From NCBI GenBank assembly GCA_046704545.1, contig JBJKRT010000009.1:42456-106455 (forward strand): a DNA stretch of 64,000 nucleotides, given 5' to 3'. This stretch comes from Longimicrobiales bacterium. GTDB taxonomy: Bacteria; Gemmatimonadota; Gemmatimonadetes; Longimicrobiales; Gaopeijiaceae. Position numbers and translations under genes: made by a program. Under the pieces are notes generated by a model that had not been told where the DNA came from, ran no database searches, and saw only the letters and a list, made by a program, of their open reading frames with translations. Positions 55,666 through 64,000 of this stretch are shown here, one piece after another (position 1 is the stretch's first letter; each line of letters begins with the position of its first letter).

Positions 55666-57102
55666 TCAGTACAGCCCGACCTGTCCCTTCACGGAGGCGA
55701 TGAGCTTGGCCGGGTCGTAGGCGACGCCCTGCTTGAACACCATCCGCACGCGGCGCACGTCGGAGATGTGCGTGGCGGGATCACCGTCGACGACCACCAG
55801 GTCGGCCTGCTTTCCCACCGCAATCGAGCCGACCCGGTCGGCGCGGCCGAGGTACTTCGCTCCGTTCAGCGTGCAGATCCGGATCGCCTCGGTCGGCGTG
55901 AAGCCGGCCTCGACGAGGAGCTCCAGCTCGCGCTGATCCGAGTAGCCCGCGATCACGCCGCCGTAGCCCGTCGGATCCGTTCCCGCGATCAGCAATCCGC
56001 CCGCGCGCGCGAAGCGGAGCTCCATCGCTTCCTCCCTGGGGAACAGGGTGCGGAAGAGGGAGGCGGTATCGCGTTGCGTGCGGGCCCATCGATCCTTGAA
56101 CCGCTGGCGGAGGATCGGATCAAGCACCTCGATGCCGGGGGGAATCGGGCGGCCCGGCGTGAACGTCTCGAAGACCGGAAGCGTGGACGTCACGGCGACA
56201 TGGTGGGCGATGAGCGTGTCGACCAGCGCCTTGAAGGCCGGCCCCTTGGGGTCCACGCGGTCGAGGGCGGCCTGACCTGCGCGTTGGCCGGGGCAGACGT
56301 CGGGCTTCTTGTCTTTCACGAAATCCGTCGACACGAAGAACCCGTGCTCGAGATCGTCGATCCCCAGATCCGCCGCCTCGCGGTACGTCACCGAGCAAAG
56401 GTGGCCGGTGATCTTCAAGCCACGCGCGTGCGCCTCGTCGATGGCGGCTCCGAGCTCCGCACGCGTGATGTCCATGTAGGCCTTGAAGGACGTCGCGCCC
56501 GCGTCGGCCCAGAAGTCCACCATACGCTTGGCGTCGGCGGCGCCCGTGAGGACGTGGAACTGATCCAGCCCCAGGCCGGGACCCTCGAGGTAGGGAGCCG
56601 TGGCGTCGATCCACGGTCCCGGCTTTCTTCCCGCCCGGATATCCGCCGTGATGCCGAAGTCGCCGTAGCCGTTCATGTCACCCGTGGTCCGCATCGTGGT
56701 GACGCCGCCCGCCAGGTACAGACGGGTGAAGCTCTCCGCCACGTTCGCGTAGACACCGCGCGCCGTCGGGTAGAAGAGATGCTCGTGCATCATCACGAGT
56801 CCCGGCATGACCGAGCTGCCGCTGAGGTCCAGCACGCGTGCACCCGACGGGACCTGGACCGAGCCCGACGGCCCGAGGGCCGCGATGTCGCCGTTCCGGA
56901 TGACGAGCGTCTGGTCGGCGCGCGCCGGCGCGCCGGTTCCGTCGATCACCCGGACGTGCGTGAGCGCCACCACCGGCGTGTCGAGCGCAACGTAGCGGAG
57001 GACGTTACGGGAGAGGGTCGGACGCTGGGCGGCGGCGGGGGAAGATCCGAGCGCGAGGAGCAGCGCCGCGAGAAACGGTGGAATCCACGGATGCGTTTTC
57101 AT
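55666..57102 (-). CDS. Secreted amidohydrolase-family metallohydrolase
   Basis: Track ORF trimmed to ATG 57102 (signal peptide MKTHPWIPPFLAALLLALGSSPAAAQ). VIDGTG...IRNGDI...MPGLVMMHEHL matches the amidohydrolase N-terminal metal motif. Confidence 0.8.
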   Translation of the reverse strand: MKTHPWIPPFLAALLLALGSSPAAAQRPTLSRNVLRYVALDTPVVALTHVRVIDGTGAPARADQTLVIRNGDIAALGPSGSVQVPSGARVLDLSGSSVMPGLVMMHEHLFYPTARGVYANVAESFTRLYLAGGVTTMRTTGDMNGYGDFGITADIRAGRKPGPWIDATAPYLEGPGLGLDQFHVLTGAADAKRMVDFWADAGATSFKAYMDITRAELGAAIDEAHARGLKITGHLCSVTYREAADLGIDDLEHGFFVSTDFVKDKKPDVCPGQRAGQAALDRVDPKGPAFKALVDTLIAHHVAVTSTLPVFETFTPGRPIPPGIEVLDPILRQRFKDRWARTQRDTASLFRTLFPREEAMELRFARAGGLLIAGTDPTGYGGVIAGYSDQRELELLVEAGFTPTEAIRICTLNGAKYLGRADRVGSIAVGKQADLVVVDGDPATHISDVRRVRMVFKQGVAYDPAKLIASVKGQVGLY

Positions 57103-57339
57103 GGAGGGAGAGTACGACTCGGGATCGGCCGCGTCCACAGATTTCGGGGTGCGGGCGCTTCCCGACCTCCTTCCGCTCACACGGGAATATGGGCCCCGCA
57201 GGACGGCGACCGCCGGTCACGGATCCGCAGCGGATGCCCGCCCGAGTTCGAGACACCCACGGTATCGCACGAAGACCGGGTCCTTCCTACCTTCTTCTCC
57301 GTCACCCGCTCACCTCCAACTCCACCCAGGTGGATCTAC

Positions 57340-60300
57340 ATGCGACATCTGCCCTCACGAGTCGCCCAAACCGCTGCAGGCACGGGCCCGTTCGCGGTCG
57401 CCCTGGCGCTCCTCACCCTCTGCATCGCCGCCCCCGTTCCGACGGCGGCCCAGCACATCCCTCGCACCGCGTATGCCGGCATGCGCTGGCGCTCGATCGG
57501 CCCCAACCGCTCCGGCAACGTCTACGCGGTCGCCGGTGTCCCGGACAATCCCGCCGTCTACTACCTCGGCCTGCCCGAGGGAGGCGTCTGGAAGAGCTCC
57601 GACGGGGGGACCGTCTGGAACCCGATCTTCGATCAGGTGCACGTGCCCTCGATCGGTTCCGTGGTCGTGGCTCCGGCCGATCCGAACGTCGTATACGTCG
57701 GGACGGGCGACCCGACGGGATGGTCGTTCACGCCCGGCAACGGCGTCTACAAGTCCACCGACGCGGGTAAGACATGGACGCACGTGGGCCTCGACAGCAC
57801 GCGCTACATCCCGACGATGCTGGTGAGCCCGAACGACCCGAACGAGGTGCTGGCCGGAGCCTTCGGCTCCCGGCAGCGGGGCGGCGGCGCGAACACCGCC
57901 ACCGGCGTCTACCGCTCGACCGACGGCGGCAAGACCTGGACGCGAACGCTCGACCTCGACCCGTACACGGGCGTCACGAACCTGAGGCACGACTATCAGG
58001 ACCCGCAGGTCGTGTACGCAAGCGTCCAGCGCCATGCCTTCGGGCTCACGAGCGCCCAGCGCAGGGCGCTCGAGCCGCTCGGGTCCGGCATCTTCAAGTC
58101 GACGGACGGAGGGGCCACCTGGAAGCCCATCGCCGGGCAGGGTCTCCCCCACACCGCGCGCGGGTTCGAGATCGGCGTCGCCTCCGGCACCCAGGGACAG
58201 CGCCTGTACGCGGAAGCGCAGGGCGCGGGACGCGATGCCGGCGGCGTCTACCGCTCCGATGACGGCGGCGCCACCTGGACGCTGGGAACGCACCGGATCG
58301 CGAGCGCCGGCGGTCGCATCTACGTCGATCCGACGAATCCCGACGTGGTCTACCTCATGGGCACGTCGATGTACCGCTCCGTCGACGGCGCGCACAGCTT
58401 CAAGTCGTTCAAGGGCTCACCGGGAGGCGACGACGAGCGCGACCTGTGGATCGACCCGCAGAACGGCAGTCGCATGCTCCTGGGAGCGGATCAGGGGCCA
58501 TCCGTCTCCATGGACGGCGGCAAGACCTGGACGCCCTGGTACAACCTGATCAACGGCCAGTTCTACAACGTCTTCACGGACAACCACTTTCCCTATCGCG
58601 TCTGCGGCGCACAGCAGGACAGCGGAACGGCGTGCGTGCTGAGCCGCAGCGACTGGGGTGAGATCACGCAGAGCGACTGGTCGACGGCGAGCGGCTTCGA
58701 GGCGGGCGTCGTCCTCACCGACCCGCTCCACCCGTACTGGGTGTACACGCAGGGTTGGTACCACACGCTCCGGCGCCTCGACCGCAGGACGGGCCAGGTC
58801 GCCGTCCTGTACTCCCCGACGCCCGAGGATCACTTCCTCTGGTCGCCTCCCATGGCCTTCTCTCCCGAGGATCCCCACACGCTCTATCTGGGCGCCCAGT
58901 GGATCCTGGCCTCCAGCGACAACGCTCGGACGTGGCACCACATCAGCCCGGATCTGACGGTACCGGCGGGCGGCAAGCCCGCGAAGACGGGCAGACGGGG
59001 CGCCCCGTCGCTCCAGTCGATCGCCCCGTCGCCGGCGGCGGCCGGAGAGATCTGGGCCGGCACGACGAACGGGCTCATCCAGCTCACACGCGACGGGGGC
59101 AAGACGTGGACGAACGTGACGCCGAAGGATATGCCGGCGGGCGTCGTCGCCCACATCGACGCGTCGAGCCACGATGCCGGCACGGCCTACGCCGTGGTCC
59201 AGGCGCCTCTGGACAATCACCCCTATATCTTCCGCACCCGCGACTTCGGAGAGAGCTGGGAGAAGATCGTCACGGGCCTGCCCGCCGACGCCGGCGCCCG
59301 CGTGGTGCGTGAAGACCCGGTGGAGCCGAACCTGCTCTATGCAGGAACGGTGAAGGGCGCGTGGGTCTCGTTCGACCAGGGCGACCACTGGCAGTCGCTG
59401 CAGCTCAACCTGCCCACCACGGTCGTCAGCGACATGACTATCCACGGCGCCGATCTCGACATCTCGACCTACGGTCGCGGCCTGTGGATCCTGGACGACG
59501 TGACCCCGCTCCGGCAGGAGACCGAAGCGATCGCGGCACGCCAAGCCTACCTGTTCCGGCCGGACACCACGTACCGCGTGCGGTGGGACAACTACCAGGA
59601 CACGCCGCTGCCTCCCGAGGTGCCGGCCGGCAAGAACCCGCCGGAAGGAGCGATCCTGGACTATTACCTGCCGCAGGCCGCGCACGGACCGGTCACGCTC
59701 TCGATCTACGATCAGGACGGCGGCCTCATCCGGCGCTACACGAGCCACCGGCCACCGCCCGACACGACCATGACGAACGTGCCGACCTACTGGCTGGCCT
59801 CGCCGGTCGTGCTGCCGACGTCCGCCGGAGAGCACAGGATCGCGTGGAACCTCCGCTACACCACTCCGCCGGCGCTGAACTACGGATACTACGGCGGCCT
59901 CCTCGACTACGAGGAGTACACGCTGACCTGGCACGCCATCGAGGGACACACGCCACGCAGAGTCCCGACCGGACCGATCGTGGCGCCGGGTACCTACAAG
60001 GTGGAGCTGACCGTCGACGGTCGAAGCTACACTCGCCAGCTGACGGTCGTGAACGACCCGAGGGACTCGGTCTCCCAGGCCGACATCGAAGATCAGCTCG
60101 CGTTCGAGCGGCGCATGATGGCCGGCATGGCGGCCAGCTACGACGGATTCAACGCCGTCCACCGCCTCAGAGGCGTCCTGGCCCAGGACATGACCAAGCT
60201 CCACGGCGGCTCACTCGCCAAGGCCGCCAAAGCGCTCGATGACAAGGCCTCCGATCTCACCCTGGCGAGCGCCACCGGGTTCGGACCCGCGAACCGCGAT

Positions 60301-60543
60301 CTGGCTCGTCATCTCGAGGACATGGAATTCGGAGACGTGAAGCCGACGCCGAGCGACCTGGCGGCGGCCGAGCTGGACTGCCGACAGATCGACAAGGCTT
60401 CGGTAGCGCTGACGTCCTTGGTATCGACGGACGTTCCCAGCCTCAACGAGAGGCTCGCCCGTGCCCACCTGACGAAGCTGCCTTCGCTCACGGTGCCGGC
60501 CAGGCCGGCGTGCACGGTCAGGAGCACGTCGACGACGAAATGA
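57340..60543 (+). CDS. BNR/Asp-box repeat protein (sortilin/Vps10-like beta-propellers), secreted
   Basis: Real part of track ORF 55768..60543, starting at ATG 57340 with a signal peptide. At least eight Asp-box motifs (SSDGGTVW, STDAGKTW, STDGGKTW, STDGGATW, SDDGGATW, SMDGGKTW, TRDGGKTW, TRDFGESW). Confidence 0.85.
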   Translation: MRHLPSRVAQTAAGTGPFAVALALLTLCIAAPVPTAAQHIPRTAYAGMRWRSIGPNRSGNVYAVAGVPDNPAVYYLGLPEGGVWKSSDGGTVWNPIFDQVHVPSIGSVVVAPADPNVVYVGTGDPTGWSFTPGNGVYKSTDAGKTWTHVGLDSTRYIPTMLVSPNDPNEVLAGAFGSRQRGGGANTATGVYRSTDGGKTWTRTLDLDPYTGVTNLRHDYQDPQVVYASVQRHAFGLTSAQRRALEPLGSGIFKSTDGGATWKPIAGQGLPHTARGFEIGVASGTQGQRLYAEAQGAGRDAGGVYRSDDGGATWTLGTHRIASAGGRIYVDPTNPDVVYLMGTSMYRSVDGAHSFKSFKGSPGGDDERDLWIDPQNGSRMLLGADQGPSVSMDGGKTWTPWYNLINGQFYNVFTDNHFPYRVCGAQQDSGTACVLSRSDWGEITQSDWSTASGFEAGVVLTDPLHPYWVYTQGWYHTLRRLDRRTGQVAVLYSPTPEDHFLWSPPMAFSPEDPHTLYLGAQWILASSDNARTWHHISPDLTVPAGGKPAKTGRRGAPSLQSIAPSPAAAGEIWAGTTNGLIQLTRDGGKTWTNVTPKDMPAGVVAHIDASSHDAGTAYAVVQAPLDNHPYIFRTRDFGESWEKIVTGLPADAGARVVREDPVEPNLLYAGTVKGAWVSFDQGDHWQSLQLNLPTTVVSDMTIHGADLDISTYGRGLWILDDVTPLRQETEAIAARQAYLFRPDTTYRVRWDNYQDTPLPPEVPAGKNPPEGAILDYYLPQAAHGPVTLSIYDQDGGLIRRYTSHRPPPDTTMTNVPTYWLASPVVLPTSAGEHRIAWNLRYTTPPALNYGYYGGLLDYEEYTLTWHAIEGHTPRRVPTGPIVAPGTYKVELTVDGRSYTRQLTVVNDPRDSVSQADIEDQLAFERRMMAGMAASYDGFNAVHRLRGVLAQDMTKLHGGSLAKAAKALDDKASDLTLASATGFGPANRDLARHLEDMEFGDVKPTPSDLAAAELDCRQIDKASVALTSLVSTDVPSLNERLARAHLTKLPSLTVPARPACTVRSTSTTK

Positions 60544-60550
60544 AGCAGTC

Positions 60551-60578
60551 GGGGCCGAGAGCGTTCGCTCCCGGCCCC
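60551..60578. terminator. GC-rich hairpin (first of two) between convergent genes
   Basis: GGGGCCG-A-GAGCG-TT-CGCTC-C-CGGCCCC. Confidence 0.5.
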
Positions 60579-60589
60579 CCGTTCCGGCG

Positions 60590-60626
60590 AAGGAGGGGGA
60601 ACGGCCCTGGGCCGTTCCCCCTCCTT
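60590..60626. terminator. 17-bp perfect hairpin, probable bidirectional terminator
   Basis: AAGGAGGGGGAACGGCC-ctg-GGCCGTTCCCCCTCCTT, followed by GCTTTCGG. Confidence 0.6.
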
Positions 60627-60637
60627 GCTTTCGGACG

Positions 60638-60991
60638 CTATTCCAGCACCTCGATGCTGTCGGGCGCGTTCGGAACGACGCAGATGAACTCGAACGGCTC
60701 GTCGCCTTCGGCCTTGTACGAATGGGGCGTGCCTGCAGCGATGTAGACCACGTCGCCCTCCTCCACCCGGTGGATCTCGTCACCCACCGTGATGGTGGCC
60801 CGTCCTCTGAGCACATACTGCTCGTGCTCCACCCTGTTGGTATGGCGAGGCATTCCACCCCCGGGCTCCATGATGAAGCGGCGCATGGCGAAGTTCGGCC
60901 CCTGGTCGGGGCCGATGAGCACCTGCCTGACCGTAGCCGAGCCGCCTTTCACCTCTTCGGCCGGAATCGTCTTCGCGGGTCGTACGGACAT
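60638..60991 (-). CDS. Cupin-domain protein
   Basis: Track ORF trimmed to ATG 60991, preceded by AAGGAG. Cupin motifs GGGMPRHTNRVEHEQYVLRG and GDVVYIAAGTPHSY. Confidence 0.8.
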   Translation of the reverse strand: MSVRPAKTIPAEEVKGGSATVRQVLIGPDQGPNFAMRRFIMEPGGGMPRHTNRVEHEQYVLRGRATITVGDEIHRVEEGDVVYIAAGTPHSYKAEGDEPFEFICVVPNAPDSIEVLE

Positions 60992-61082
60992 CTCGCTCAC
61001 TCCTTCCTGGAGCTGGAAACACTCACCGACCCGTTGAAGCTGGCGAGTCGGGGACGTGGGGTCCAGCGTAGCCTGAACGTAC

Positions 61083-61120
61083 GAAGAGGGGGTGGGCCCG
61101 AACGGGCCCACCCCCTCTTC
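61083..61120. terminator. Near-perfect 38-nt palindromic hairpin downstream of the malic enzyme gene
   Basis: GAAGAGGGGGTGGGCCCG-AA-CGGGCCCACCCCCTCTTC. There is no clear U-tract on the minus strand. Confidence 0.45.
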
Positions 61121-61138
61121 TCCTGCATTCCGGCGGAA

Positions 61139-62806
61139 TTACCGGTAGTGCTTGTAGACCGGGTCGAACATGGCCGCCTCGACGACCGCCCCCAGATCGA
61201 CGGGCCGTGGAGCACGCGCGAGACCTCGCTCGAACGCCACCGTGGCCACCGCCTCGGCGATGTGCGCCGAGACTTCCCGGATGCGTTTCAGCGACGGGTA
61301 GATGCGACCCTGGCGCAGGTCGTTCTCGTTGACGAGCCCCGCCAGCGTCCGTGCCGCCTCGAAGAACATCTCGTCGGTGCACTCCGAGGCTTCCGACACG
61401 ATGAGCCCCAGGCCGACCCCGGGGAATACGTAGGCGTTGTTGCCCTGCCCCGGTACGAAGCGCTTGCCGTCGAGCTCGACCGGCCCGAACGGGCTTCCAC
61501 TCGCGAAGATCGCCCGTCCTTCCGACCAGGTGTACGCCTGCTCCGCCGTGCACTCCGACTTCGAGGTCGGGTTCGACAGAGCGAAGATGATCGGACGCTC
61601 GTTGAGACGGGCCATCTCTTCGACGATCGGCTGCGTGAACGTCTGAGGACGTCCGGACACCCCGACGATGGCGCCGGGCTGGAGGCGGCGGATCGCCTCG
61701 AGAAAGTCCGTCGTCGGCTCCGCGTCGTGGGCGAACGGCTTCTTGTGGCTCGCAAGGTCGGTGCGGCTCTTCACCACCAGACCCTTCGAGTCGAAGAACC
61801 AGCACTTCTGGCGCGCCTCCTCCTCGGTCATCCCGTCGTGAACGAGCGCAGCCGTGATGAGGTTGCCGATACCGACCCCCGCCTCTCCAGCGCCGAGGAA
61901 GAGATAATTCCGGTCGGCGAGCTTCTGGCCCGTGATCCGCAGCGCCGAGTAGACGCCGGCCAGCGCGACCCCCGCGGTTCCCTGGATGTCGTCGTCGAAC
62001 GAGCAGAAGCCGACCCGATACTTCTCAAGGAGCCGGAATGCGTTGTGCGTGGCGAAGTCTTCCAGCTGGACCACTGCCTTGGGGAATACTTCCGCCACCG
62101 CTTCGAAGAACTCGTCGATGAGCTCGTCGTACGCTTCCCCGCGTAGCCTGTGGCGTGGGATGCCGAGGTAGAGCGGATCTTCGAGCAGGCTCTCGTTGTC
62201 GGTGCCCACGTCGAGCGTGACGGGCAGGGTCTGGGTCGGATGGATTCCGGCGCACGCGCTGTACAGCGACAGCTTGCCGATGGGAATCCCCATGCCGTCG
62301 GCTCCGAGGTCGCCGAGCCCCAGAATCCTCTCGCCGTCGGTAACCACGATGATGCGCACGTCTTCGTGCGGCCAGTTCCGCAGAACCTCCTTCACGTGCC
62401 CGCGATCGTAGGCCGACACGTACAGGCCCCGTGACTGGCGATAGATATGGCCGAACTCCTGACACGCCTGACCGACGACCGGCGTGTAGACGATCGGCAT
62501 GAGGTCCTCGATGTTGTCCAGGAGCACACGATAGAACAGCATCTCGTTGCGGTCCTGAAGCGAGATCAAGGCGATGTACCGCTCCAGGTCGTCGTGCTTC
62601 CTGCGCAGGTTCTCGAGAACCCGGGTAACCTGGAGCTCCTGTGTGGCGACCCGGGGAGGCAACAGCCCCCTCAGGCCCAGGGCCTCGCGCTCGGGCTCCG
62701 TGAACGCGGTCCCCTTGTTGAAGACTGGGTCGTGCAGGAGCTTGGTGCCCCGCGGGAAATCGGATGGAAGGGGAAGCGCCTTCTGGGCGTCCTCTAAGGT
62801 CTTCAT
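61139..62806 (-). CDS. maeA: NAD(P)-dependent malic enzyme (large, MaeA/SfcA type)
   Basis: Track ORF trimmed to ATG 62806. Motifs NKGTAFTEPEREALGLRGLLPP, VYTPVVGQACQ, VVTDGERILGLGDLG and FLGAGEAGVGIG. Confidence 0.9.
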   Translation of the reverse strand: MKTLEDAQKALPLPSDFPRGTKLLHDPVFNKGTAFTEPEREALGLRGLLPPRVATQELQVTRVLENLRRKHDDLERYIALISLQDRNEMLFYRVLLDNIEDLMPIVYTPVVGQACQEFGHIYRQSRGLYVSAYDRGHVKEVLRNWPHEDVRIIVVTDGERILGLGDLGADGMGIPIGKLSLYSACAGIHPTQTLPVTLDVGTDNESLLEDPLYLGIPRHRLRGEAYDELIDEFFEAVAEVFPKAVVQLEDFATHNAFRLLEKYRVGFCSFDDDIQGTAGVALAGVYSALRITGQKLADRNYLFLGAGEAGVGIGNLITAALVHDGMTEEEARQKCWFFDSKGLVVKSRTDLASHKKPFAHDAEPTTDFLEAIRRLQPGAIVGVSGRPQTFTQPIVEEMARLNERPIIFALSNPTSKSECTAEQAYTWSEGRAIFASGSPFGPVELDGKRFVPGQGNNAYVFPGVGLGLIVSEASECTDEMFFEAARTLAGLVNENDLRQGRIYPSLKRIREVSAHIAEAVATVAFERGLARAPRPVDLGAVVEAAMFDPVYKHYR

Positions 62807-63063
62807 GATCTCTGCCGCCTCGACAGGTCTCTGGTGTATCTCGAGGTCGGGCTGGCCAGGGGGCAGGCCGCCATCCCAACACGTGCGTGGGAGGATCCGA
62901 CAGGTCGCCGAACAGGCGGATAGCAACCTGCTTGCCCTGAATCATCACCCTTTTTCCAGCCTCCGGCAACGGCTTCGGCGCCGGTCCCCACGGACGCGCT
63001 CACGATCCGCAAAGGGCCTGTGCCAGAACGGTTTCCCGCTCTGACGAGAGGGCGGTCAGGGTA

Positions 63064-63103
63064 CAAAAGAAAGGCCCGACGGAGGCTTGCGCCTCGTCGG
63101 GCC
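63064..63103 (-). terminator. Intrinsic terminator of repeat copy 1
   Basis: Minus strand reads GGCCCGACGAGGC-GCAA-GCCUCCGUCGGGCC followed by UUUCUUUUG. Confidence 0.75.
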
Positions 63104-63366
63104 TAAGGTGGGGGCAACCTGCGACCCTCCCGCCAACAGGATACCCCACACCTTCTTTCGGTACTCACGAGCGATCCGCATCGACCTCCCGTTTTCCCCA
63201 TGTTTGGGTCGCCGAAAGTTCCTGCCCTAAACTCTCGACGACCCTGGAGCTGCCACCCGGCGAGGGCGGGTAGAGGTTGCTGGACCTCGTCCCGTCGGGC
63301 AATCAGCCCCGAACTTGCTGCACCTAGTCTACCTCCAGCCCCACCAGAGTGCTGTCGGGGGAAATC
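63064..63366 (-). ncRNA. Candidate structured non-coding RNA, copy 1 (unclassified; 5' end approximate)
   Basis: Conserved core ends in an intrinsic terminator on the minus strand. A 15-bp hairpin (63206-63244) and other stems are supported by G-U and compensatory changes between copies. A 1-nt indel between copies breaks the only small ORF. Confidence 0.5.
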
Positions 63367-63522
63367 AGATGGATTTTGTAGGAAAACACCCCACAGAAGT
63401 CCGGAGCTCGGCAGGGGCCACGGCCGCCTCCAGGACCGGTGGGCCGGACCGTCGCGGGCATGTTATCCTCACACCCGACGAACCCGGAGCCCCGGTGCTC
63501 CGTCCGGACGCCGCTCACGGAC

Positions 63523-63562
63523 GAAGAAAAGGCCCGACGGAGGCTTGCGCTTCCGCCGGGCC
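63523..63562 (-). terminator. Intrinsic terminator of repeat copy 2
   Basis: Minus strand reads GGCCCGGCGGAAGC-GCAA-GCCUCCGUCGGGCC followed by UUUUCUUC. The arm substitution gives a G-U pair on the minus strand but an A-C mismatch on the plus strand. Confidence 0.7.
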
Positions 63563-63824
63563 CGAGGTGGGGGCAACCTGCGACCCTCCCGCCAACAGGA
63601 TACCCCACACCTTCTTTCAGTACTCGCGGGCGATCCGTCTCGACCTCCCGTTTTCCCATGTTTGGGTCGCCGAAAGTCCCTGCCCTAGACGATCGACGAC
63701 CCTGGAGCTGCCACCCGGCGAGGGCGGGTAGAGGTTGCTGGACCTCGTCCCGTCGGGCGATCAGCCCCGAACTTGCTGCACCTAGTCTACGTCCGGCCCC
63801 GCCGGAGTGCTGTCGGGGGAAATC
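63523..63824 (-). ncRNA. Candidate structured non-coding RNA, copy 2 (unclassified; 5' end approximate)
   Basis: Same architecture as copy 1, shifted by 458 bp. Confidence 0.5.
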
Positions 63825-63981
63825 AGATGGATTTTGTAGGAACACACCCCACAGAGATCGGGAGCCCGGCAGGGGGTACGCCTCCCTCCAAGGACCGGCG
63901 GACCGAACCATGCATGCACATGCTAGTCGCACATTGACGACCGCGATGCTCGGTGTCTTGTCCGCAACGCCGCTCGCGGAC

Positions 63982-64000
63982 AAAAAAAGGCCCGACGGAG
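63982..64000 (-). terminator. Terminator of repeat copy 3 (partial; only the 3' arm and U-tract are in the window)
   Basis: CTCCGTCGGGCC followed by TTTTTTTG on the minus strand. Confidence 0.5.

Follow-up and report, generated by a model that had tools for sequence, protein, structure and literature searches.

The final part of a 64,000-nt stretch of DNA from a Longimicrobiales bacterium (phylum Gemmatimonadota; contig JBJKRT010000009.1 of assembly GCA_046704545.1, positions 42,456 to 106,455; the whole stretch is called the window in the following) contains a genuine tandem array with a period of 458 bp, which is located upstream of maeA, the gene for an NAD-dependent malic enzyme. We favor the view, with a probability of roughly 60%, that the array consists of independently transcribed genes for a structured small regulatory RNA (sRNA) that acts in trans, with the 5' leader of maeA as the best candidate target. 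The observations that carry this view were made in silico: the repeat and its non-coding status, an RNA structure with covarying stems, the promoter-like element and the terminator that accompany each copy, the distribution among relatives, and an enriched complementarity between the RNA and maeA leaders.

The tandem array

Tandem Repeats Finder reported a single array (63063-64000; period 458, 2.0 copies, 86% matches), and a repeat finder yielded in-register repeat families at spacings of 458, 459 and 458 bp, in agreement with the period given in a preliminary description of this DNA. The opening of the unit (GGCCCGACGGAG) indeed recurs at 63073, 63531 and 63989, as stated there, and a 40-nt segment of the core occurs exactly twice in the 64-kb window, compared to 0 occurrences in 100 shuffles. 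A BLAST search of the unit against the window confined it to one locus. Two full units are present on the minus strand, as defined by Tandem Repeats Finder, the repeat families and the alignment: copy 1 (63064-63521), which adjoins maeA, and copy 2 (63522-63979). The order of elements on this strand, complete also in copy 2, is a fast-evolving spacer, an operator-like inverted repeat, a core promoter, the RNA, and an intrinsic terminator. Of the distal copy 3 the window includes the 3' end (63980-64000, minus strand), i.e., the 3' arm of the terminator (CUCCGUCGGGCC) and the U-tract, which is seen in the sequence and in a BLAST match of unit positions 438-458 to 64000-63981; the remainder lies beyond the window edge. 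The claim of at least three copies is thus correct but barely visible, because the third copy is represented by only 21 nt.

In the minus-strand alignment of copies 1 and 2 the spacer (the first 104 columns) is 63.5% identical, while for promoter and RNA (357 columns) the identity is 91.6%, and the differences comprise 28 substitutions and two single-base indels. Six gap columns exist in total, and the -1 and the +1 indel that had been described as compensating each other are both located in the RNA part and do offset each other. The earlier division of the unit into a conserved core and a divergent spacer is justified, but this core contains about 75 nt of promoter and operator, and the RNA itself has a predicted length of about 257 nt in the window.

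Coding potential and search for known families

Judged from its sequence, the unit is non-coding, and the earlier conclusion to this effect is retained. An open reading frame (ORF) of 32 codons is frameshifted in copy 2, as had been noticed, and stops after 17 codons in the relative L001 (L numbers designate the loci of relatives throughout). It is not the only ORF, as had been assumed, since longer ORFs of 219, 162 and 138 aa span the repeats. These are broken by indels in relatives, and no Pfam match was obtained for ORFs that cross the repeats. In addition, a 1-nt indel occurs among family members within the most conserved hairpin (GUCCUG versus GUCUG), the period of 458 is indivisible by three, and the invariant stretch does not exhibit synonymous-type variation.

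The same features bear on a group of explanations that we regard as very improbable, namely that the repeat encodes a small protein or a type I toxin-antitoxin system of the E. coli LDR or Ibs/Sib type, that it is a mobile element, or that it is an assembly artefact. Tandem repeats of about 0.5 kb with short ORFs and strong hairpins recall LDR loci, and the window ends within the array. However, the lack of a conserved ORF, the indel within the conserved hairpin, the period, and the lack of synonymous-type variation argue against a toxin-antitoxin system. A mobile element is at odds with the single locus in the window, with the syntenic position in relatives, and with a blastn search of the unit against 72,556 plasmids and 50,697 phages, which gave no match. 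A scan of viral contigs with a 20-mer from the 3' hairpin ("block C") also yielded 0 matches; a scan with the pattern CGACGGGACNNNNNCCAGCAANNNNNTACCCGCC, which contains one N too many, carries no weight as a negative. An artefact is disfavored by the divergence of the copies, which amounts to 8%. Moreover, two-copy arrays of relatives are embedded in contigs of 419 and 636 kb, and therefore the tandem copies are not merely artefacts of collapsed repeats.

The preliminary description could not assign the unit to a known RNA family, and a scan against Rfam 15 led to the same result. The whole window had 0 matches at the gathering threshold, the region 60000-64000 had only sub-threshold matches on terminator hairpins at E up to 1, and a relative with a longer form of the RNA (L002:5400-6010) had no relevant match at E up to 10. 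Taken together with the plasmid and phage searches, the unit did not match a known RNA or mobile-element family. ARAGORN predicted 0 genes for tRNA or transfer-messenger RNA (tmRNA) in the window and in L001. Searches of the literature by taxon, motif, and sequence string did not reveal a description of this RNA.

Predicted structure of the RNA

From 5' to 3', the RNA is composed of a 5' domain with two long hairpins (A and B), a variable center, a 3' hairpin, and the intrinsic terminator. For copy 2 an RNA of about 256 nt is predicted (63523-63778, minus strand), based on the conservation from the promoter on, a match to the covariance model of the 5' domain (model R1; 63771-63661, 114.1 bits, E 2.3e-18), the invariant loop described below, and the terminator. 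The 5' domain of copy 1 (63203-63313, minus strand) matches the same model with 123.5 bits and an E-value of 4.4e-20 and is also supported by covariation; the covariance-model E-values are rough. The RNA presumably starts 6-8 nt after the -10 element.

Hairpin A of copy 1 begins with the helix P1 (GGGGCUG/CAGCUCC; 63310-63304 paired with 63252-63246), which is followed by P2, P3 and P4. Around P3 and P4 its internal loops (GACGGGAC and UACCCGCCCUCGCC) are nearly invariant, and a C-rich internal loop (CCCGCCCUCGCC) is found at 63270-63259 in copy 1. The loop GGGCAGG (63227-63221) is exposed by hairpin B (63244-63206 in copy 1). The central hairpin of copy 1 (63153-63200, minus strand), which was derived from the family sequences and the minimum free energy (MFE) fold, contains an internal loop of GAA opposite AGUA (GGGAAAGCG ... 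CGCGAGUACC). It is typical of the short forms of the RNA and absent from the long forms, in which the central hairpin is replaced by a region that is about 120-130 nt longer. The pattern of this internal loop has the sequence signature of a motif of the sarcin-ricin or loop-E type. The 3' hairpin, block C (63107-63152 in copy 1, minus strand), has a covarying stem and is, together with the terminator hairpin, the sole part that is retained in the smallest family members. Its apical 23 nt, CCUGUUGGCGGGAGGGUCGCAGG (63140-63118 in copy 1, 63599-63577 in copy 2), with the predicted tip GGGAGG, are identical in all family members and represent a candidate seed.

In the covariance-model alignment of the 5' domain 95.8% of the cells are paired, and 13 pairs are changed on both sides. 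The number of double-changed cells is 78; shuffles gave 17.6 +/- 4.9 and controls with slid partners 6-17. P3 and P4 barely vary, and therefore they are outside of this test. Compensatory changes were found in 12 of the 30 pairs of the 3' hairpin and the terminator, and the MFE z-scores are -4.8 and -3.1.

The form of hairpin A raises the question whether it mimics tRNA or tmRNA and is recognized by RNase P, AlaRS or SmpB, e.g., as a signal for processing by which the 3' part is set free, which we consider highly unlikely. P1, with its G-U as third pair, equals the acceptor stem of E. coli tmRNA, and together with the GACGGGA next to it resembles the tmRNA 5' end; this similarity to ssrA served as a lead only. 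P1 and P2 form a nearly continuous helix of 14 bp, and 34 of the 43 distinct family members have G-U as third pair of P1. However, this pair is G-C in six and A-U in three of them, in contrast to the invariant G3-U70 identity pair of tmRNA and tRNA-Ala, and P1 deviates in L095, L101 and L111. Neither ARAGORN nor the tmRNA and tRNA models of Rfam at E up to 10 gave a match, and a T-arm, a CCA end (the 3' strand is followed by A, U or G and then GGG), a tag reading frame, and pseudoknots are all lacking.

Predicted promoter, operator, and terminator of each copy

Upstream of both RNAs the core promoter-like element CCGACA-N21-TAGACT was identified by pattern match and as a family motif (63326-63358 for copy 1, 63784-63816 for copy 2, both minus strand). 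It is preceded by the inverted repeat TGTGGGG-N5-CCTACA, which resembles an operator and also matches a family motif (63377-63395 for copy 1; for copy 2, where it is found in the register of copy 1 plus 458, the candidate regulator site is at 63835-63853; both minus strand). Throughout the family the promoter has the consensus CCYGACR-N21-23-TANNNT, which all 41 distinct upstream regions contain, and the inverted repeat has the consensus GTVGG-N7-CCNAC, which 34 of the 41 contain, located 17-18 nt upstream of CCYGACR. The inverted repeat is likely to be a regulator binding site. The spacing of 21 nt exceeds that of a standard pair of -35 and -10 elements. CCYGACR might rather be a third half-site of the regulator, because it resembles the right half-site CCCTACA.

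Each RNA ends with an intrinsic terminator on the minus strand. That of copy 1 (63064-63103) consists of a GC-rich stem-loop of 31 nt (63103-63073) followed by UUUCUUUUG (63072-63064), and that of copy 2 (63523-63562) of a stem (63562-63531) and a U-tract (63530-63523). Both were predicted by folding and are supported by compensatory changes in the stem throughout the family, which agrees with the earlier observation that each core has a minus-strand stem-loop with a U-tract. An A-to-G change in a terminator arm leads to G-U pairing exclusively on the minus strand. Such G-U pairs are frequent on this strand across the whole family, and the opposite strand would have C-A mismatches at these positions; thereby the transcribed strand is fixed. 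The strand had already been derived from the arm substitutions of the two copies, and the comparison of the family leads to the same strand. In silico, each copy thus looks like a transcription unit of its own, promoter and terminator included.

Distribution and forms of the RNA in Gemmatimonadota

Eighteen genomes of Gemmatimonadota were fetched by the similarity of their maeA products (73-93% aa identity), and 13 of them contain the unit upstream of maeA and on the same strand. The adjacency to maeA that had been described for the window is therefore also typical of most of the loci of relatives. The R1 model had 47 matches in contigs of Gemmatimonadota, 43 of them distinct, with E-values from 1e-21 to 1e-6. 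No match was found in 62 maeA loci of other phyla, nor in five maeA loci of Gemmatimonadota, two of which are truncated upstream. As far as the covariance-model search of the fetched loci shows, the RNA family appears to be restricted to Gemmatimonadota. One copy is present in L003, L009, L010, L011 and others, two copies in L002, L008, L017 and L024, three copies in L018 and L093, and at least three in the window. The arrays of relatives have periods between 353 and 531 bp.

When metagenomes were scanned with a 21-mer taken from the invariant loop, 32 loci were retrieved, and 28 of these are family members; a few chance matches of the 21-mer are expected in the collection scanned. Two pairs of hits were rejected. 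At L115:12364-12384 (plus strand) and in L119 a perfect antisense copy of 24 nt of the loop is located at -42 to -18 of a gene for a secreted protein, in its 5' untranslated region, and looked like a target; it was dropped as a likely chance match of the 21-mer. The contig probably does not belong to Gemmatimonadota, because the named homologues of the protein are from Vicinamibacterales (Acidobacteriota). L091 and L112 contain the 21-mer, but neither stem arms nor a terminator or a promoter, and look like chance matches.

Four forms of the RNA can be distinguished. The long form (about 385 nt; L002, L011, L014) has a structured center that is about 120-130 nt longer than that of the short form (about 255 nt; L009, L024), to which the copies of the window belong. 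In the compact form (about 190 nt; L090, L096, L118, L095) the 5' domain is joined straight to the 3' hairpin. The mini form (about 80-100 nt; L018:1547-1640, L089 at about 186-206 on the minus strand, and L092:7961-8088) is reduced to promoter, 3' hairpin and terminator hairpin: the family promoter is followed by the 3' hairpin either at once or with one or two small hairpins in between, and the 5' domain is missing. The mini gene of L018 is the first member of an array of three genes, and that of L089 has no clear U-tract. The mini genes apart, the predicted lengths in relatives are about 190-390 nt.

The RNA also occurs in other contexts than upstream of maeA. The compact genes follow a gene for threonine dehydratase, and a convergent gene for a phosphodiesterase lies on their other side (as annotated for L090). 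In L111 and L100 a cupin gene comes after the RNA. Convergence of the downstream gene was found for L090 and, as read from the sequence, apparently applies to L096, L099 and L101 as well. The position of the RNA locus is syntenic, with a gene for a conserved hypothetical protein of 136-150 aa upstream and a member of the same phosphodiesterase family downstream. The small protein is 61% identical between L002 and L090, and for the version of 136 aa no Pfam family was found. In many relatives a gene for a DEAD-box RNA helicase and the overlapping gene for the small protein are situated directly upstream of the RNA locus (L001:7479-9268, L002:3117-4811, L003, L004, L090:3379-3789), and a functional link of the two genes to the RNA is possible. 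At L098, a remnant that resembles the N-terminus of the maeA product (…NEGTAFTDAGRE…) is found on the minus strand about 60-130 nt past the terminator of the RNA, and an intact maeA is not present. This one sequence stretch suggests that maeA was lost at this locus and the RNA gene was retained.

RNA genes or leaders of maeA

The downstream neighbor of the array (61139-62806, minus strand) is an ORF of 555 aa whose homologues contain PF00390 and PF03949 and are named NAD-dependent malic enzyme by the sources; the closest homologues are from Gemmatimonadota and Longimicrobiales metagenome-assembled genomes. Between the last RNA terminator and maeA the promoter-like element TTGCCG-N17-GATGAT was read from the sequence (62941-62969, minus strand). 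A consensus scan did not detect it, and in the leader alignment of relatives it is conserved as TTGCCN-17-GAnnnT. It might be maeA's own promoter.

In L015, for which no RNA gene was detected upstream of maeA, this gene is located directly behind a promoter of the RNA type (CCCTACA-N17-CCCGACAGC-N21-TAGAAT; L015:4800-4965). The same type of promoter precedes maeA in L013, where no RNA gene was detected and the contig is truncated upstream of maeA. The maeA leaders of L015 and L013 are unrelated to those of the RNA-linked loci. As a result of this arrangement RNA and maeA appear to be under the same regulator, which suggests a single regulator that acts directly on maeA in some lineages and on the RNA in other ones.

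The preliminary description had offered two options, an array of sRNA genes and a stack of cis-regulatory leaders that act on maeA. According to the second option, riboswitches or attenuators would control maeA by regulated termination and read-through. The units are indeed on the same strand and directly upstream of maeA in most loci, each is closed by a terminator, and the promoter of L015 would be compatible with an origin of the RNA from a maeA leader. However, tandem riboswitches share one promoter, whereas each copy of this family has its own promoter (41/41) and mostly also an operator (34/41), and maeA has a separate conserved promoter-like motif after the last terminator. Furthermore, the RNA is found beside convergent genes or without a maeA nearby (L090, L096, L099, L101), the mini genes lack any possible aptamer, and an alternative anti-terminator fold was not seen for the long and GC-rich terminator. 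Own promoters and terminators, contexts without maeA, and mini genes indicate free-standing genes and not leaders. These three lines of evidence speak for the sRNA array and leave the cis-leaders quite improbable.

The maeA leader as candidate target

Transcription, start site, action in trans, target, and regulator are what we infer from these data, and together they result in the following scenario. A regulator that binds to the inverted repeat would switch on all copies, and the copy number would set the dose of the RNA. The RNA would act in trans by pairing of its exposed G-rich loops with C-rich sequences. In the maeA leader, the 5'-proximal CCCUCCC(G) would pair with the loop of the 3' hairpin (loop C) and CCUGCCC with the loop of hairpin B (loop B). 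The pairing would alter the folding or the stability of the leader and hence, in either direction, the synthesis of malic enzyme.

The leader of the window (62807-62940, minus strand) was characterized by leader alignment, folding, and a complementarity search. It contains a C-rich site 1 (GAUCCUCCC, 62897-62889) that is complementary to loop C, and a site 2 (CCUGCCC, 62867-62861) that is complementary to loop B (GGGCAGG). In most RNA-linked loci the best-conserved leader element, (A/G)ACCCUCCCG/CCCUCCC(G), is located at -82 to -99 from the AUG, and CCUGCCC follows about 30-35 nt downstream of CCCUCCC; this order is in line with antiparallel pairing at two sites. A contiguous Watson-Crick complement to loop C, at least 9 nt long, is present in 18 of 26 RNA-linked leaders, compared to 28 of 2731 random 110-nt windows of the same loci, 0 of 4 unlinked leaders of Gemmatimonadota, and 2 of 62 outgroup leaders. 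For loop B, a Watson-Crick complementarity of at least 7 nt was found in 18/26, 87/2731, 1/4 and 2/62, respectively. The loop-leader complementarity is about 70-fold above background. In the window, a search for further target-like sites yielded nothing above chance.

The leader is also able to form structures of its own. The Shine-Dalgarno sequence of maeA (GAGG) is part of a CCUCGA/UCGAGG hairpin. A G-run further downstream (GGUGGGGGUG or GGGAUGG) can serve CCCUCCC(G) as a pairing partner in cis or, alternatively, form its own hairpin with CCCCACC. The maeA leader is itself conserved and looks like a switchable structured element that may function independently of the upstream RNA.

Several points weigh against the interpretation as trans-acting sRNA genes with maeA as target. 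The RNA-linked leaders are related to each other, and thus the 18 of 26 are not independent events, and loops B and C were picked after inspection of the data. In the window the match to loop C comprises only 6 nt of Watson-Crick pairs (9 bp with one G-U; -19.4 kcal/mol), which is within background, and among the loops only loop B (7 nt) exceeds it. Co-folding of the whole RNA with the leader resulted in diffuse GC-rich pairings without loop-leader helices, with a gain of only -2.2 kcal/mol for the window, and the candidate site is situated about 85 nt upstream of the start codon, away from the ribosome binding site. Covariation was assessed on an alignment that had been fitted to the model itself. 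The invariance of the loop is partly circular for the 28 members from metagenomes, because they were retrieved with a 21-mer from that very loop; it is independent only for the maeA-linked copies that were found by BLAST or with the covariance model. Promoter, start site, and termination were all derived from motifs, and a consensus scan for promoters and terminators detected neither element at the array. The terminator was missed by this simple scan because its stem is bulged, and the promoter because the rule expects a spacer of 16-18 nt, compared to 21-23 nt in the family. Last, the large 5' domain is conserved beyond the need of a plain base-pairing sRNA.

The latter point leads to an alternative that we regard as unlikely, though worth serious attention, namely that the RNA is part of a ribonucleoprotein, e.g., as a scaffold, a sponge, or a sensor, and that the 23-nt loop and the 5' hairpin bind a protein or a ligand. 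The complementarity to maeA leaders would then be incidental or due to a shared binding partner. The internal loops of hairpin A and the 23-nt loop are conserved to a degree that far exceeds the needs of pairing, the short forms contain the sarcin-ricin-like GAA/AGUA pattern, the genes for the DEAD-box helicase and the small protein are present upstream in many of the loci with listed upstream genes, the leader match of the window is weak, and the co-folding did not show the loop-leader helices. On the other hand, a partner protein was not identified, and the small protein of 136 aa is without a Pfam family. The mini genes, which contain the 3' hairpin without the 5' domain, imply that the loop works by itself, in the manner of a seed, and the 70-fold excess of loop-leader complementarity would be left to coincidence or a common partner. 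GGA is not enriched, and hence the RNA does not look CsrB-like; a sponge of the CsrB/RsmZ type was rejected, as 6-12 GGA per RNA were counted versus 7-12 expected from dinucleotide shuffles.

The conservation of the 5' domain could also be explained within the framework of trans-acting sRNA genes, if this domain sensed a metabolite or a protein and thereby gated the seed. In this variant, a trans-acting "riboswitch-sRNA" that we consider improbable, hairpin A would pair through its C-rich internal loop (CCCGCC, CCCUC) with the tip of the 3' hairpin (GGCGGGAGGG) and mask the seed until the signal is bound. All positions that would form the masking helix are invariant and thus give no covariation signal. 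If true, a dose-tunable array would couple a metabolic signal to the synthesis of malic enzyme.

Implications and further features of the window

Gemmatimonadota are a common phylum in soils and sediments with few cultured members. In our searches of the literature by taxon, motif, and sequence, no published regulatory RNA of this phylum was found. If the array does consist of trans-acting sRNA genes, Gemmatimonadota would have a well-defined sRNA family with a structure supported by covariation, a promoter, an operator, and a gene dose from one to at least three. With maeA as candidate target, the RNA would be placed at the malate/pyruvate node of central carbon metabolism. The operator GTVGG-N7-CCNAC together with CCYGACR would represent a regulon signature that can be searched genome-wide, and the mini, compact, short, and long forms, which share one loop, would be a natural series for separating the function of the seed from that of the 5' domain.

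Two additional observations concern other parts of the window. Perfect inverted repeats of 18 bp at 60590-60626 (AAGGAGGGGGAACGGCCC/...) and 61083-61120 (GAAGAGGGGGTGGGCCCG/...) flank a cupin gene downstream of maeA and look like bidirectional terminator hairpins; weak sub-threshold Rfam matches (Pxr, Scr6925, miRNAs) coincide with them. Of the listed ORF of 1591 aa at 55768-60543 (plus strand), the first roughly 500 residues resemble low-complexity, GC-driven read-through, and the true start of the gene is probably much later, near the signal-peptide-like MRHLPSRVAQTAAGTGPFAVALALLTL.

Comparison with known systems

Tandem riboswitches and attenuators have in common with the array that a structured RNA with an intrinsic terminator is located, in tandem and co-oriented, upstream of a metabolic gene. 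In contrast to them, the Gemmatimonadota RNA has a promoter for each copy, it occurs without a co-oriented gene, and mini versions without the large domain exist. Beyond maeA, an association with genes related to a ligand was not found.

Clustered sRNAs with up to nine copies, an invariant loop motif, freely covarying stems, and a modular number of hairpins have been described for Alphaproteobacteria, i.e., the cuckoo/CcsR family (RSs0680; PMC4615179). Clustered copies, an invariant loop motif, and covarying stems are also characteristic of the Gemmatimonadota RNA, but the two differ in size, structure, and phylum. Furthermore, the loop of the cuckoo RNAs is C-rich (CCUCCUCCC, similar to an anti-Shine-Dalgarno motif) and would pair with G-rich sequences, whereas the loops of the Gemmatimonadota RNA are G-rich (GGGAGGG, GGGCAGG) and its candidate targets are C-rich.

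The closest known organization is that of NsiR1 of Nostoc/Anabaena, which is encoded upstream of hetF in 12 tandem copies with individual promoters that carry a shared motif, and which regulates the hetF 5' untranslated region (UTR) and further targets (PMC9045159). The two systems belong to different phyla, are not similar in sequence or structure (no Rfam match), and regulation of maeA is only predicted. NsiR1 has a length of about 60 nt, compared to about 190-390 nt and a large conserved 5' domain in the Gemmatimonadota RNA. NsiR1.1 overlaps the hetF 5' UTR in antisense, whereas the RNA described here shares its strand with maeA and would need to act in trans. The literature searched does not contain the Gemmatimonadota RNA. 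It would thus be a new family, but of the known kind of tandem sRNA genes, and with NsiR1 it shares the arrangement of tandem, slightly divergent sRNA genes upstream of a protein-coding gene, each with its own promoter and a shared motif.

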